Source: Candidatus Bathyarchaeia archaeon
GTDB taxonomy: Archaea > Thermoproteota > Bathyarchaeia > Bathyarchaeales > Bathycorpusculaceae
Assembly: GCA_038882655.1 (NCBI GenBank)
Contig: JAVZNT010000015.1
Span: forward strand, 1-22,489
DNA length: 22,489 nucleotides
Direction: 5' to 3'
In this document: positions 727 to 6,140 of the stretch, piece after piece
Layout: each line of letters opens with the position of its first letter
How positions within the stretch are numbered: position 1 is the first letter of the stretch
Notes under the pieces: model-generated
Databases searched by the model: none
Told to the model about the DNA's origin: nothing
The model's input: the letters and a program-made list of their open reading frames with translations, nothing else
Translations under genes and position numbers: made by a program

Positions 727-2295
727 ATGGTGGAGATTAGGGAGCCAACTGTTGAGGAGAAGATTAGGCGTTTACGCGAAATGCGGGAACAAGCCAAACT
801 TGGCGGCGGGCTTAAACGCATAGAAGAGCAGCACGCCAAAGGCAAGCTGACCGCCAGAGAACGCATAGACCTCCTCCTAGACCCAGGAAGCTTCAACGAG
901 CTTGACCAGTTTGTGGTTCACCAGTGCACAGACTTCGGCATGGCGGAGCGCAAATATTTGGGCGACGGCGTCGTGACAGGCTACGGAACAATAAACGGAA
1001 GACTCGTCTACGTTTTCTCGCAAGATTTCACGGTTTTCGGCGGCTCGCTGGGTGAAATGTTCGCGAGAAAAGTCTGCAAACTCATGGACTTGGCGATGAA
1101 AACTGGCGCGCCGGTCATAGGCTTAAACGATTCTGGCGGAGCGCGCATTCAAGAAGGTGTTGCGAGCCTTGCGGGTTATGGCGACATATTCTTCCGCAAT
1201 GTAATGGCTTCTGGCGTAATTCCCCAAATATCCGCCATAATGGGACCCTGTGCGGGCGGAGCCGTTTACTCGCCAGCTCTCACAGACTTCATCATAATGG
1301 TGGACAAGACAAGCTACATGTTTATCACGGGACCAGATGTTGTCAAAACAGTTCTGGGGCAAGAAGTAACTTTTGAAGAGCTTGGCGGAGCCATGGTTCA
1401 CAGCCAAACCAGCGGTGTAGCCCACTTCATAGCCAAAGACGAGGAGCACTGCATCCAAATAATTAAGAGGCTTTTGAGCTATTTGCCAAGCAACTACCTT
1501 GAAGACCCGCCCTATGTGGAAACGGGCGACGACCCAAACCGCACAGACGAGGAACTGGCTCGCATAATGCCGGATGACCCAGACAAGCCTTACGACGTTA
1601 AAGAGGTCATCCAACGCGTGGTAGACAACGGCGAATTCTTCGAAGTTCAGCCTTTATGGGCGCCAAATATAGTTATAGGCTTCGCAAGGCTGAATGGGCA
1701 CCCAATTGGCATGGTGGCAAACCAACCCGCCTATTATGCTGGAGCTCTAGACATAAACTCGTCTACAAAAGCCGGAAGATTTGTGCGGTTCTGCGACTGC
1801 TTCAACATACCAATAATAACTTTCGTAGATGTGCCAGGCTTCCTGCCAGGCATAGAGCAGGAGCACGGAGGCATAATACGCCATGGCTCAAAACTGCTTT
1901 ATGCCTACTGCGAAGCCACAGTTCCAAAAATAACGGTTATACTGCGCAAGGCTTACGGCGGAGCCTACGACGTTATGGGAAGCAAGCATTCTGGCGGAGA
2001 TATAAACTATGCTTGGCCAACAGCTGAAATAGCCGTCATGGGACCTCAAGGCGCCATAAACATAATCTTCCGGAAGGAGATTGCTGAAGCTCCAGAGCCT
2101 GAGCAGAAACGCTTAAAACTTGTTAGTGACTACCGGCGGAAGTTTGCTAACCCCTATGTAGTTGCCCAGAAGGGCTACGTTGATGAAGTTATTGAGCCTG
2201 CTGAAACGAGACCAAAGCTGATTAGCGCTCTTGAAATGCTTATGACAAAACGCGAGGCTAGGCCATCAAAAAAACATGCAAACATTCCATTATAG
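727..2295 (+). CDS. Acyl-CoA carboxyltransferase (PccB/MmdA/transcarboxylase 12S-type)
   Basis: 522 aa with motifs [59 protein letters not shown] and C-terminal [14 protein letters not shown] upstream. Confidence 0.93.
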
Positions 2296-2351
2296 ATAAA
2301 TAAGTGCGTTTCCCAAGTTTCCCTTCTATTACCCCTTCGAAGTGAATAAGT

Positions 2352-3896
2352 TTGAGCACCAAACCAGTTAAGATTACGGATACAACGTTTCGAGACGCCC
2401 ACCAGTCGCTTATGGCGACCAGAATGCGCACGGAATCCATGCTTCCAATAGCTGAGAAAATGGACAGTGTAGGCTTCTTCTCCATGGAGGTTTGGGGAGG
2501 CGCCACCTTCGACGTTTGCATACGCTATCTAGCGGAAGACCCTTGGGATAGAATCCGCAAACTTAAGAGGCATATTAGGCACACGCCACTGCAGATGCTT
2601 TTGAGGGGACAGAATGTTGTTGGTTACAGGAACTATCCAGACGATGTTGTCATAAAATTTGTTGAAAAAGCCGCTGAAAACGGCATAGACATATTCCGTG
2701 TTTTCGACGCCTTAAACGATGTCCGTAACATGGAAATCGCCATAAAAACCGTCAAGCGAGTGGGAAGACACGCGCAGGGCACGATGTGCTATACCATAAG
2801 CCCAGTCCACACAATAGGCTATTATGTGGATGTCGCCAAAAAGTTGGCTGAGCTTGGCTGCAACTCCATATGCATAAAGGACATGGCTGGGATGTTGGCA
2901 CCCCAACCAGCCTACGAACTTATAACAGCTCTAAAAAGGGAGGTGGGCTTGCCGGTGCACCTGCATTGTCACTGCACCAGCGGAATGGCTATGATGACCT
3001 ATCTGCGGGCATGCGAAGCCGGAGTAGACATAATAGACACGGCTTTTTCGCCGCTGGCATGGGGCACATCCCAACCGCCAGTAGAATCCATAGTCGCAGC
3101 CCTGAAAGGGACGCCCTACGACCCCGTACTTAACATGGAGCTTTTACAGGAGATTGCCGAATACTTTAGAGGGCTCAGAGAGAAATACTATGACCCGTTG
3201 GGGCTCATAGACCCAAAAGCTGAAAAAGTCGACCCTTCTATAATGATTCACCAGATTCCGGGCGGGATGTTCTCCAACCTCCTCGAGCAGTTGAGGGAGC
3301 AGAACGCTGTGCACAGGCTTAAGGAGGTTCTTGAAGAAGTTCCAAGGGTTAGAAGGGAGCTTGGCTATCCGCCGCTTGTTACGCCTACAAGCCAGCTTGT
3401 GGGCATCCAAGCTGTACTCAATGTTTTGTCTGGAAAACGCTACAGTATAGTGCCAAAGGAAATAAAGGACTATGTTAAAGGGTTTTATGGGCGACCTTCA
3501 GCCCCAATAGATGAGGAAGTTAAGAAGCTCATAGTTGGTGATGAGGAGCCCATAACTTGCCGTCCAGCAGACCTTCTTGAACCAGCTCTATACAAGATTC
3601 CGGAGGATGTTAAACCCTACATTGAAAGCGAGGAGGACATGCTCACATACGCCTTGTTTCCAACCATAGCCCCAGAATTCTTCAAGAAACGGAAAGCAAA
3701 ACAGGAGGAAGCCAAAAAAGGCATATTATCCGAAAAAATGGCGGAACTGGAGCAGGTGGCAGCTGTTTCCGCAGCTGTCGCTGCCTACATGGTAAGCCTA
3801 GGCGAGGTGAAAGCCCTAACCCTCCAAAGAGCTAGGCGTGGAATGTCGCCTTGGGTTCTTTCTGGAAGACAAAGCCTAGCAGAGCATGGTGTTTAA
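2352..3896 (+). CDS. Pyruvate/oxaloacetate carboxyltransferase (transcarboxylase 5S/OadA/PycB-type) without a biotinyl domain
   Basis: 514 aa, TTG start; motifs RDAHQS, EVWGGATFD, LQMLLRGQN, IKDMAG (carbamylated Lys), HCH metal ligands and GYPPLVTPTSQ. No MKM biotin motif. Confidence 0.92.
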   Translation: MSTKPVKITDTTFRDAHQSLMATRMRTESMLPIAEKMDSVGFFSMEVWGGATFDVCIRYLAEDPWDRIRKLKRHIRHTPLQMLLRGQNVVGYRNYPDDVVIKFVEKAAENGIDIFRVFDALNDVRNMEIAIKTVKRVGRHAQGTMCYTISPVHTIGYYVDVAKKLAELGCNSICIKDMAGMLAPQPAYELITALKREVGLPVHLHCHCTSGMAMMTYLRACEAGVDIIDTAFSPLAWGTSQPPVESIVAALKGTPYDPVLNMELLQEIAEYFRGLREKYYDPLGLIDPKAEKVDPSIMIHQIPGGMFSNLLEQLREQNAVHRLKEVLEEVPRVRRELGYPPLVTPTSQLVGIQAVLNVLSGKRYSIVPKEIKDYVKGFYGRPSAPIDEEVKKLIVGDEEPITCRPADLLEPALYKIPEDVKPYIESEEDMLTYALFPTIAPEFFKKRKAKQEEAKKGILSEKMAELEQVAAVSAAVAAYMVSLGEVKALTLQRARRGMSPWVLSGRQSLAEHGV

Positions 3897-4458: not shown

Positions 4459-4460
4459 GG

Positions 4461-6140
4461 CTAGAATATGGATGGAGGCTTGTATTCTCCGAAAACTTGG
4501 CGGAGGGTGTCGCATATTTCACCAAGCGTGGCGTATTCTTTAACAGCCTGAATTATGAAAGGCATTAGGTTTACATCTTCATTCTCTGCAGCGTTCTGCA
4601 AACTGTCTAAGGCTTCCTTAACTTTTGTGTTATTTCTTTGGCGTTTCACCTCCTTTAAGCGTTTTATCAACGTTTTTTCAATTTCCGGGTCTATCCGCAA
4701 AATTTTGATTGGCGTTTTCTCTTTGCTTGTGAACTCATTGACGCCGACAACTATGCGCTTTTTGCTTTCTATCTCCTTCTGGTAGCGGTAGGCACTTTCC
4801 ATTATTTCCCTCTGCATGAAGCCTTTTTCTATGGCGGCAACAGCCCCGCCCATCTCATCTATCTGCTCAATGTATTTTGCTGCTTTCTCCTCAATCTGGC
4901 TTGTCAAGTACTCTACATAATAGGAGCCGCCAAGCGGGTCAATGGTATCTGCTACTTCGCTTTCGTAAGCTATTATCTGCTGAGTTCTAAGTGCAATTGT
5001 GACCGCCTGCTCACTTGGCAAGGCATACGCCTCGTCAAAAGAGTTTGTGTGTAATGACTGGGTTCCGCCGAGGACGGCGGCTAAGGCCTGAATTGTTGTG
5101 CGGACAATGTTGTTTAGGGGCTGCTGAGCTGTAAGCGAAACCCCAGAAGTTTGCGTGTGAAAGCGCAGCATCCAAGAGGCTGGATTTTTGGCGCCGAAGC
5201 GCTTCCGCGTAATATGTGCCCACAAGCGTCTGGCAGCTCTAAACTTTGCAACTTCCTCGAAAAGGTTATTATGCGCTGCAAAAAAGAAGGAAAGTCTACC
5301 AGCGAATTTGTCAACATCTAAGCCTCTTTCAATCGCGGCTTGCACATAGGCTATGGCATTAGCAAAGGTGAAGGCTACTTCTTGAACCGCCGTGGCGCCA
5401 GCCTCTCGAATGTGATAGCCGCTTATGCTTATGGTGTTCCACTTCGGCACATTTTTGGCGCAGTACTCGAAAATGTCTGTGACTAGACGCATGGAAGGCT
5501 TCGGCGGAAAAATATACATGCCTCTGGCAACATACTCTTTCAAAATGTCGTTCTGAACAGTGCCATCAAGCACGTTTTGCGGAACACCCTGCTTCTCGCC
5601 CACAACAATGTACATGGCAAGCAAAACAGCCGCAGGGGCATTAATCGTCATAGACGTTGTAATCTTATCCAATGGTATGTCATCAAAAACAATTTCCATA
5701 TCTCGCAAAGTGCTTACGCTTACGCCAGCCTTGCCCACTTCTCCTCTCGCCATGGGATGGTCACAGTCATAGCCCACCTGAGTGGGAAAGTCAAAAGCCA
5801 CGCTCAACCCGGTCTGCCCTTGACTTAACAAGTATTTGAAACGCTGGTTCGTCTGCTCAGCAGTGCCAAAGCCAGCATACTGCCTCATAGTCCAAAAACG
5901 AGCCCGATACATTGTGGGGTAAACGCCGCGTGTAAAGGGATACTCACCAGGAAAACCTAAATTCCCAAAATAGTTGAGGTTAGCGATGTCTTCTGGCGTG
6001 TAAAGGCGTTTCACTGGTATGTCTGAACTTGTGGAAAACTCACCCCGTTCTGGAAGCCTCTCAATACTTTTAGCTACAGTCTCCCTTTCCCAACGCTCCT
6101 TTTCACGTTTAATTTTTCCCAGCTGTTCCTTGTCAAACAA
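4461..6140 (-). CDS. mcmA1: Methylmalonyl-CoA mutase, large (substrate-binding) subunit
   Basis: 559 aa; [19 protein letters not shown] (Tyr specificity residue), [15 protein letters not shown] (Arg), [25 protein letters not shown]. No DxHxxG B12-binding domain, so this is the split enzyme form. Confidence 0.93.

Follow-up and report, generated by a model that had tools for sequence, protein, structure and literature searches.

Results

Gene content of the window

We analyzed a 22,489-nt stretch of bathyarchaeal DNA ("the window"), focusing on three genes that encode a candidate transcarboxylase and on the methylmalonyl-CoA mutase (MCM) gene that faces them. The window is the entire contig C15 of a genome (G000) assembled as 1.02 Mb in 27 contigs and 84% complete, so that absences from this genome are provisional. 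The closest named relatives are metagenome-assembled genomes (MAGs) of the Bathyarchaeia, with identity of up to 93%. On the plus strand, the first gene (727-2295) encodes a 12S/PccB-type acyl-CoA carboxyltransferase of 522 aa (PF01039 Carboxyl_trans, 698.7 bits), the second (2352-3896) a 5S/PycB/OadA-type keto-acid carboxyltransferase of 514 aa (PF00682 HMGL-like plus PF02436 PYC_OADA), and the third (3886-4458) a stand-alone biotin carboxyl carrier protein of 190 aa, BCCP1 (Biotin_lipoyl at residues 123-189). The 12S and 5S genes are separated by 56 nt, the 5S and BCCP1 genes overlap by 11 nt, and only 2 nt lie between the stop of BCCP1 and that of the convergent, minus-strand gene (4461-6140) for the large, substrate-binding subunit of MCM (559 aa; PF01642, 800.7 bits; TIGR00641, 849.9 bits). 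A Pfam profile search found no fused Biotin_lipoyl domain in the 514-aa protein. The biotinyl domain of BCCP1 (4243-4458, plus strand; PF00364, 85.1 bits) bears an EAMKM motif whose lysine, K156, was invariant in 40 sequences. It was modeled with pLDDT values above 90, and in fold comparison it matched 2d5d_A (Z of 14.9, root mean square deviation [rmsd] of 0.8, 70 aa). Searches with tblastn counted one 12S-type gene, one 5S-type gene, two BCCP genes, and two genes for the mutase large subunit in the assembled genome. An earlier note on this DNA had described the three open reading frames, their domains, their tight spacing, and the convergent mutase, and open reading frame coordinates together with Pfam and NCBIfam profiles bear this out; profile searches also agree with its observation that neither an ATP-grasp biotin carboxylase nor an OAD_beta (OadB) subunit is encoded inside the window.

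A biotin carboxylase module beyond the contig end

The lack of a biotin carboxylase in the window is an artefact of the contig end. The only biotin carboxylase matched by PF02785 in G000 is encoded by accC on contig C23 (503 aa; TIGR00514, 650.7 bits against a cut-off of 626.5; NF006406, 713.8 bits). Overlapping accC is the gene for a second carrier, BCCP2 (179 aa), which is followed by genes for methylmalonyl-CoA epimerase (TIGR03081, 168 bits) and then, as assigned with NCBIfam, for a major facilitator superfamily (MFS) transporter and birA. When C23 and the window were aligned to the relative L018, C23:8914-10470 matched L018:1906-3474 (80%) and window positions 1-134, which form the junction, matched L018:3471-3604 (92.6%). 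Since the end of C23 maps to L018 position 3474 and the start of the window to position 3471, accC lies ~7.5 kb upstream of position 727 and on the same strand. The key argument of the earlier note, that no biotin carboxylase is present, thus fails for G000: accC, BCCP2, epimerase, and birA are part of the same cluster. The note had proposed whole-genome searches for a biotin carboxylase and for the epimerase; both genes were found on C23, the first counting against its argument and the second agreeing with it.

The arrangement is conserved among relatives. Same-genus loci (L015, L017, L019, L020, and L048) show the order AccC-BCCP2-Epi-(MFS)-BirA-12S-5S-BCCP1, co-directional up to the MCM gene on the opposite strand. 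In most Bathyarchaeia loci, the minus-strand MCM gene stands directly after BCCP1, and this convergent layout is conserved. The comparison of synteny that the earlier note called for cut both ways: the link between cluster and mutase is kept in relatives, but accC belongs to the same-genus cluster. In the deep lineages L044 and L073, accC-BCCP2 is found between the two carboxyltransferase genes, in the order AccC-BCCP2-5S-BCCP1.

Divergent from accC, a minus-strand pair of genes (C23:275-3595; L002) specifies, by NCBIfam, a flavoprotein of the SdhA type together with a fused, TfrB-like iron-sulfur subunit; the pair corresponds to a soluble fumarate reductase or succinate dehydrogenase. The TfrB/HdrD-like domain fused to the iron-sulfur subunit scored 326 bits with NF004898, below the cut-off of 385. 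A minus-strand sdhA gene is also found upstream of the cluster in L022, L038, and L052, and genome G265 has sdhA upstream as well. Between birA and the 12S gene is a variable block of small minus-strand open reading frames (C23:8187-10462 and window positions 207-581); none of these reached a family cut-off, and weak partial NCBIfam matches were obtained for C23:9587-10462 only. The spacer from birA to the 12S gene measures 0.9 to 3.5 kb among same-genus relatives.

Occurrence of 5S, 12S, and biotin carboxylase genes in the Bathyarchaeia

Among 41 genomes of the same order, 25 have a 5S orthologue, 23 a 12S type, 21 AccC, and 1 OadB. Five of these genomes have 5S without any PF02785 match, one of them (G016) being 97% complete. 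At the level of the genus, biotin carboxylase was found in 11 of 13 relatives and in G000. Consistent co-occurrence with a biotin carboxylase, which the earlier note had taken as speaking against transcarboxylation, is thus seen within the genus but not across the order.

A class-wide sample comprised 251 genomes, all but G000 at least 90% complete. A 5S-like gene was present in 48 of these: together with biotin carboxylase and 12S in 25, with 12S but no biotin carboxylase in 21, and with biotin carboxylase but no 12S in 2, both of which are contig-edge cases; 5S alone was found in none (0/251). As for genomes without 5S, 19 have biotin carboxylase and 12S, 2 biotin carboxylase only, 10 12S only, and 172 none of the three. 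Since 5S without 12S occurs only at two contig edges, yet 5S is often found without biotin carboxylase, the obligate partner of 5S appears to be 12S, not biotin carboxylase. Five extra Bathyarchaeia genomes, two of them from chromosome records, were reached via their loci; PF02785 was matched in 0/5, full-length PF01039 in 5/5, and OadB in 0/5.

We searched for OadB in these five genomes and in the 21 genomes of the class-wide sample that have 5S but no biotin carboxylase. It was found in seven, directly beside carboxyltransferase genes, and these are exactly the seven genomes with distant 5S matches (55 to 64% identity, other families). The loci in question are Na+-pump decarboxylase clusters, and the option of counting all 21 genomes as transcarboxylase type was rejected because OadB stands beside the genes in these seven most distant ones. 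The other 14, all of the same order and with 5S at least 70% identical, have neither biotin carboxylase nor OadB, and 12S is kept in 14/14. Among the 41 genomes of the class with true 5S orthologues, the biotin carboxylase module is therefore present in 27 and missing in 14. With the five extra genomes added, orthologous 12S, 5S, and BCCP genes occur without biotin carboxylase and without OadB in 19 genomes (14 + 5).

Two genomes show the module being lost. In G265, whose 5S is 85% identical, accC-BCCP2 is gone, whereas tfrB/sdhA, epimerase, MFS, birA, 12S, 5S, BCCP1, and mutase are kept. In G051 (L104:6100-8039, minus strand), accC and BCCP2 carry one frameshift each, and 12S, 5S, BCCP1, birA, and epimerase are intact; the frameshifts may reflect decay of the biotin carboxylase module, sequencing error being another possible cause. 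The only OadB of the 41-genome order sample is in G014 (C48:1239-3789), where a second OadA-like gene of 56% identity is directly followed by OadB; this pair may stem from transfer or from contamination of the bin.

Affinities of the two carboxyltransferases

The 12S-type protein was closest to PccB-type subunits among PDB entries, with 751 bits for TM0716 PccB, 734 bits for Streptomyces coelicolor PccB, 699 bits for Sulfolobus tokodaii 1x0u, and 630 bits for the 12S of Propionibacterium freudenreichii subsp. shermanii (P. shermanii; 1on3). Its best NCBIfam model was TIGR01117 mmdA (877.8 bits, below the cut-off of 998.8). The 5S-type protein matched PycB (5ks8_C) at 548 bits, OadA (2nx9) at 515 bits, and authentic 5S (1rqb) at 474 bits. 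It scored 795 bits with the PycB model NF006761, exceeded the cut-off of the OadA equivalog NF008985 (733.5 against 718 bits), and missed the 5S equivalog NF008984 (570.6 against 827 bits).

The earlier note had also suggested a 5S phylogeny. In a quick IQ-TREE search (76 proteins; 5 of 80 loci, L036, L055, L061, L078, and L085, were dropped as truncated), the Bathyarchaeia formed one clade of 43 rows (aLRT of 99), all of them split forms. Outside this clade, fused PycB types beside accC interleave with split types beside 12S. The tree thus supports a split clade proper to the Bathyarchaeia but no separation of transcarboxylase from PycB. Sequence alone does not assign the function of the trio.

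A tail common to AccC and 5S and an N-terminal domain on both carriers

The C-terminal tail of the 5S-type protein (about residues 457 to 514; 3720-3893, plus strand) resembles an epsilon subunit and is homologous to the tail of AccC: the AccC tail of ~50 residues, which spans about residues 448 to 503, is 37% identical to it over 49 aa (E of 5e-8 in a two-sequence blastp search). The AccC tail matches PF13822 ACC_epsilon (26.8 bits against a cut-off of 25); against the PDB it gave coiled-coil noise only. Residues A470, A488, and W501 of the 5S tail were invariant in 28 orthologues, and conservation of the tail extends to every orthologue inspected, whether or not biotin carboxylase is encoded in the same genome. 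We also considered the tail as a shared hallmark of transcarboxylases and dropped the idea, as P. shermanii 5S aligns at an E of 0.001, mostly at the end of the PYC_OADA domain.

In each of the two BCCPs the N-terminal domain is conserved. Because a fold search with the whole of BCCP1 was swamped by the biotinyl domain, the N-terminal domain (residues 1 to 95; 3886-4170, plus strand) was folded alone. The AlphaFold model shows eight strands (pLDDT of 80.6), and with Foldseek nearly all top ranks were BT domains of propionyl-CoA carboxylase (PCC), acetyl-CoA carboxylase (ACC), and methylcrotonyl-CoA carboxylase (MCC). The best Foldseek match was 7ybu_A (TMq of 0.77, rmsd of 2.4 Å, 90 columns), whose E of 1.2e-3 is marginal, and VIA matched 5csa_B with a Z of 7.4 (rmsd of 3.2 Å, 84 aa), the next row scoring 4.4. 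Pfam searches of the BCCP N-terminal domains and the 5S tail left PCC_BT (14.8 and 22.1 bits against 23.5) and OAD_gamma below their cut-offs. On the strength of the BCCP1 model, both BCCPs appear to carry an N-terminal BT-type barrel. A predicted complex of the 5S tail with the BCCP1 barrel gave an ipSAE of 0.55 in 3/3 runs (best control, 0.00), with partner pLDDT of at least 52 and at least 82% contact agreement between runs. The pass mark of this procedure is reached by 116/157 solved complexes and 2/215 mismatched pairs, and scores of 0.60 or below include only 18/157 solved complexes plus both passing mismatches, so that the support is weak.

Genomes hold one small BCCP for each driver enzyme, a term that we use for biotin carboxylase and for the 5S-type enzyme. 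One small BCCP was counted in 11/12 genomes that have only 5S and in 6/6 that have only biotin carboxylase, and two were counted in 6/6 genomes with both drivers. The count covers frames of 182 to 302 aa; larger frames were taken as lipoyl E2 and frames of ~140 aa as GcvH, by size alone. The exception among the 5S-only genomes is the one-contig genome G267, in which 5S and 12S are present and no small BCCP-type frame with PF00364 was found. The tail common to AccC and 5S, the BT-type barrel on the BCCPs, and the rule of one BCCP per driver are new here.

Other pathway genes in the genome

A second mutase operon on contig C16 (C16:16825-19921; L095 and L096) encodes a large subunit 65% identical to the window copy, a B12-binding subunit (TIGR00640, 184.3 bits), and MeaB (319.6 bits). 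Both of the latter had been named as genes to look for in the earlier note. This B12-binding subunit is the only one found, and the window mutase has none of its own in the assembly. At two substrate-motif positions, the window mutase has Tyr and Arg, which we take to be diagnostic for methylmalonyl-CoA, and the C16 paralogue has His and Gln; if this residue rule holds, His and Gln suggest a non-methylmalonyl substrate for the C16 enzyme, which would be of the isobutyryl-CoA mutase kind. G000 also has two genes each for succinyl-CoA synthetase beta and ADP-forming acyl-CoA synthetase. Searches of the whole 84%-complete genome gave no match to OAD_beta (PF03977), the OadB/MmdB search that the earlier note had suggested, and none to archaeal phosphoenolpyruvate carboxylase (PEPC), GTP-type phosphoenolpyruvate carboxykinase (PEPCK), or HpaB_N (4-hydroxybutyryl-CoA dehydratase). 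A reading of the carboxylase as part of a 3-hydroxypropionate/4-hydroxybutyrate cycle was dropped, HpaB_N not having been found.

Other genes in the window

Farther along the window, two divergent aEF-2 paralogues (12244-14454, minus strand, and 14676-16895, plus strand) score 889 and 875 bits with TIGR00490, above its cut-off, yet share only 49% identity. Paralogous EF-2 genes have been reported in some archaeal lineages. The 494-aa product of another gene (18042-19526, plus strand) is PurP-like (DUF1246/DUF1297) and aligns with its family in several disjoint segments, a pattern suggestive of insertions; purC (20143-21192) and purE (21205-21687) are nearby.

Discussion

The best reading of the trio is that it supplies the carboxyltransferase core of a biotin-enzyme system composed of modules, within a succinate/methylmalonyl-CoA/propionyl-CoA gene cluster. 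We propose, with a probability of roughly 55%, that this core is a methylmalonyl-CoA:pyruvate transcarboxylase to which an ATP-dependent AccC-BCCP2 module has been added. On the 12S/PccB-type enzyme, CO2 would pass between (S)-methylmalonyl-CoA and biotin; on the 5S-type enzyme, it would pass between biotin and pyruvate/oxaloacetate; and BCCP1 would ferry it between the two, independently of ATP. Such a transcarboxylase would work with epimerase, mutase, succinyl-CoA synthetase, and the soluble fumarate reductase. With ATP and bicarbonate, AccC-BCCP2 would load the same 12S core, giving a propionyl- or acetyl-CoA carboxylase, and together with the 5S enzyme it might also act as a pyruvate carboxylase with an anaplerotic, priming role. 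ATP-dependent propionyl-/acetyl-CoA carboxylation is accordingly to be expected in G000 and its genus as well, and ATP-dependent pyruvate carboxylation is possible there. We infer the reaction of the trio from gene content and co-occurrence, and it may run in either direction. Propionate formation would fit the presence of ADP-forming acyl-CoA synthetases and of genes resembling those of a soluble fumarate reductase beside the cluster, and propionyl-CoA assimilation would fit the carboxylase module.

All that either carboxyltransferase does is load CO2 onto biotin or take it off. By established biotin-enzyme chemistry, where neither a biotin carboxylase nor a carboxybiotin-decarboxylating beta subunit is present, two carboxyltransferases and a carrier can close a cycle only by transcarboxylation. 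The 19 genomes with orthologous trios in this state, together with the conserved link between trio and mutase, favor the ATP-independent exchange of carboxyl groups that the earlier note put forward, even though G000 itself has accC.

P. shermanii transcarboxylase (12S, 5S, and 1.3S; EC 2.1.3.1) has the same three component types, including a separate carrier (1dcz, E of 1.6e-12), and shares the link to mutase and epimerase. The bathyarchaeal carrier differs in being a 190-aa protein with a BT-type barrel, whereas 1.3S presumably has only a short N-terminal peptide; the 522-aa 12S lacks the long C-terminal extension that we take P. shermanii 12S to have; the epsilon-like tail of the 5S is not clearly found in P. 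shermanii 5S; and the bathyarchaeal cluster includes a biotin carboxylase module that is optional across relatives. In syntrophic propionate oxidizers (Pelotomaculum/Desulfotomaculum relatives, L090 and L092), MCM, epimerase, 12S, BCCP, and 5S are likewise clustered and 5S is likewise unfused, but the order in these mmc clusters is MCM-Epi-12S-BCCP-5S, the BCCP is short, and the 5S is a tailless protein of 462 to 466 aa that is 56% identical and falls in another clade of the quick tree. As for the crenarchaeal acetyl-/propionyl-CoA carboxylase (AccC, AccB, and PccB), the overlapping accC-BCCP2 pair and the PccB-type subunit are common to both, and the archaeal acyl-CoA carboxylase set is complete in G000 (AccC above its cut-off, BCCP2, and the single PccB-type gene); the bathyarchaeal cluster differs in its extension by 5S-BCCP1 and in having no HpaB_N counterpart in the genome as assembled.

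Several observations weigh against a transcarboxylase. By sequence, the 5S-like protein has more in common with PycB and OadA than with authentic 5S (548 and 515 versus 474 bits), passing the OadA equivalog and missing that of 5S, and the quick tree, which does not separate transcarboxylase-type from PycB-type proteins, assigns no function. The order AccC-BCCP2-5S-BCCP1 in L044 and L073 resembles a PycA-PycB pair. Conservation of biotin carboxylase in the genus (11/13 relatives plus G000) implies that ATP-dependent carboxylation is selected for and might be the chief activity, or even the sole one. With archaeal PEPC and GTP-type PEPCK not found in the 84%-complete genome, the 5S enzyme may be needed for ATP-driven anaplerosis. 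Finally, the predicted complex of 5S tail and BCCP1 barrel lends the proposed architecture weak support only.

These points lead to an alternative that we consider unlikely but the most serious of those weighed, namely, that the cluster encodes only ATP-dependent carboxylases sharing one biotin carboxylase and that direct transcarboxylation is negligible. AccC, BCCP2, and the 12S-type protein would then assemble into a propionyl/acetyl-CoA carboxylase of the crenarchaeal type. Its product would pass on to epimerase and mutase, which would turn the propionyl-CoA derived from amino acids or odd-chain acids into succinyl-CoA, and AccC with a split PycB (5S-like protein plus BCCP1) would form a pyruvate carboxylase. 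That accC-BCCP2 is in the same cluster and conserved in the genus speaks for this, as do the higher score of the 5S-like protein with PycB than with authentic 5S and the lack of any match to archaeal PEPC and GTP-type PEPCK in the genome as assembled. A stand-alone PCC-type enzyme moreover exists in the class, given the 19 genomes with biotin carboxylase and 12S but no 5S. The two-subunit, archaeal-type pyruvate carboxylase PycA/PycB shows the highest similarity to the 5S-like protein, and AccC resembles PycA/AccC models. The closest homologues with fused biotin domains outside the Bathyarchaeia are encoded directly upstream of accC in 16/16 such loci; in these, however, the BCCP is part of PycB and the gene is beside pycA, whereas the bathyarchaeal carrier is a separate gene, accC stands 7.5 kb away with a BCCP of its own (only L044 and L073 have it next to the carboxyltransferase gene), and many relatives lack biotin carboxylase altogether. 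The distribution across genomes is harder to reconcile with purely ATP-dependent enzymes: 5S persists without biotin carboxylase in 14 same-order and 5 further genomes, and it is without 12S only in the two contig-edge cases. Likewise, 5S-BCCP1 is intact both in G265, from which accC-BCCP2 has been deleted, and in G051, where accC-BCCP2 is frameshifted, and the 5S tail is kept where genomes have no biotin carboxylase.

A Na+-translocating methylmalonyl-CoA or oxaloacetate decarboxylase, to which the trio would contribute the soluble part, is a very improbable reading. The match to OadA equivalog NF008985, mmdA as best model for the 12S-type protein, and the seven distant Bathyarchaeia genomes with OadB beside 12S-like and 5S-like genes are what such a pump would predict. 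However, OAD_beta was not found in the 84%-complete G000, OadB occurs in 1/41 order relatives (there beside a second copy of 56% identity) and in 0/19 orthologue genomes without biotin carboxylase, and the seven OadB-linked 5S proteins are tailless and only 55 to 64% identical, their alignments ending near residue 453. A single PycB gene broken by frameshift or assembly error, as might be read from the 11-nt overlap and from NF006761 matching the 5S-like protein at profile positions 2 to 469 and BCCP1 at 460 to 589, is effectively refuted by conservation of the split form in 43/43 Bathyarchaeia tree rows (relatives' open frames, 513 to 536 aa) and by about 45 to 120 extra conserved residues per protein at the junction, these being the 5S tail and the BCCP1 barrel.

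If the trio is a transcarboxylase core with an added carboxylase module, the tail and the barrel may explain how the parts fit together. The BT domain of PCC, MCC, and ACC and the actinobacterial AccE5/PccE subunits offer the nearest parallel: the N-terminal domain of BCCP1 matches BT barrels, and the AccC tail matches ACC_epsilon. The difference is that here the helix-like element is fused to AccC and, uniquely, to a 5S-type enzyme, with the barrel fused to the carrier. In the hybrid ACCase of Mycobacterium smegmatis, the epsilon subunit AccE5 inserts its helix into a beta-barrel on the biotin carboxylase side and binds the carboxyltransferase hexamer through its C-terminal hairpin (PMC13612425). 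By analogy, each bathyarchaeal driver enzyme and its own carrier would form a split BT domain (tail helix plus BCCP barrel) that docks on the 12S hexamer. A bolder version, which we regard as doubtful, is that one PccB-type hexamer acts as a hub for two interchangeable drivers, biotin carboxylase-BCCP2 and 5S-BCCP1, each docking by its split BT domain. If this were true, the same particle could be an ATP-free transcarboxylase, an ATP-driven propionyl-CoA carboxylase or, when mixed, a pyruvate carboxylase, and lineages would tune it by gain or loss of the biotin carboxylase module. Holoenzymes of this design have not been described among transcarboxylases, and this one would be a living intermediate linking them to carboxylases.

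In the Wood-Werkman propionate pathway, ATP is saved at the transcarboxylase step, and to our knowledge this enzyme has been characterized biochemically only in bacteria. Judging by titles and abstract starts, in a search that did not cover subscription journals, we found no literature on a transcarboxylase system in the Bathyarchaeia, nor, on the same basis, any on an archaeal methylmalonyl-CoA carboxyltransferase enzyme. A transcarboxylase-type propionate module has already been inferred from genomes for Asgard archaea (PMC7015854), and an older survey of biotin carboxylases put transcarboxylases to one side (PMC3199775).

The present results bear on annotation as well as on physiology. Since the 5S-like protein passes the OadA equivalog although no beta subunit was found, automated annotation probably misnames members of this clade. 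The tail common to AccC and 5S, the BT barrel on each carrier, and the natural variants with, without, or with a decaying biotin carboxylase module amount to a testable model of module swapping among biotin enzymes. If these archaea do connect C3/C4 acids with propionyl-CoA without spending ATP, the energetics estimated for their fermentation would change, as would estimates of propionate formation or consumption by archaea.

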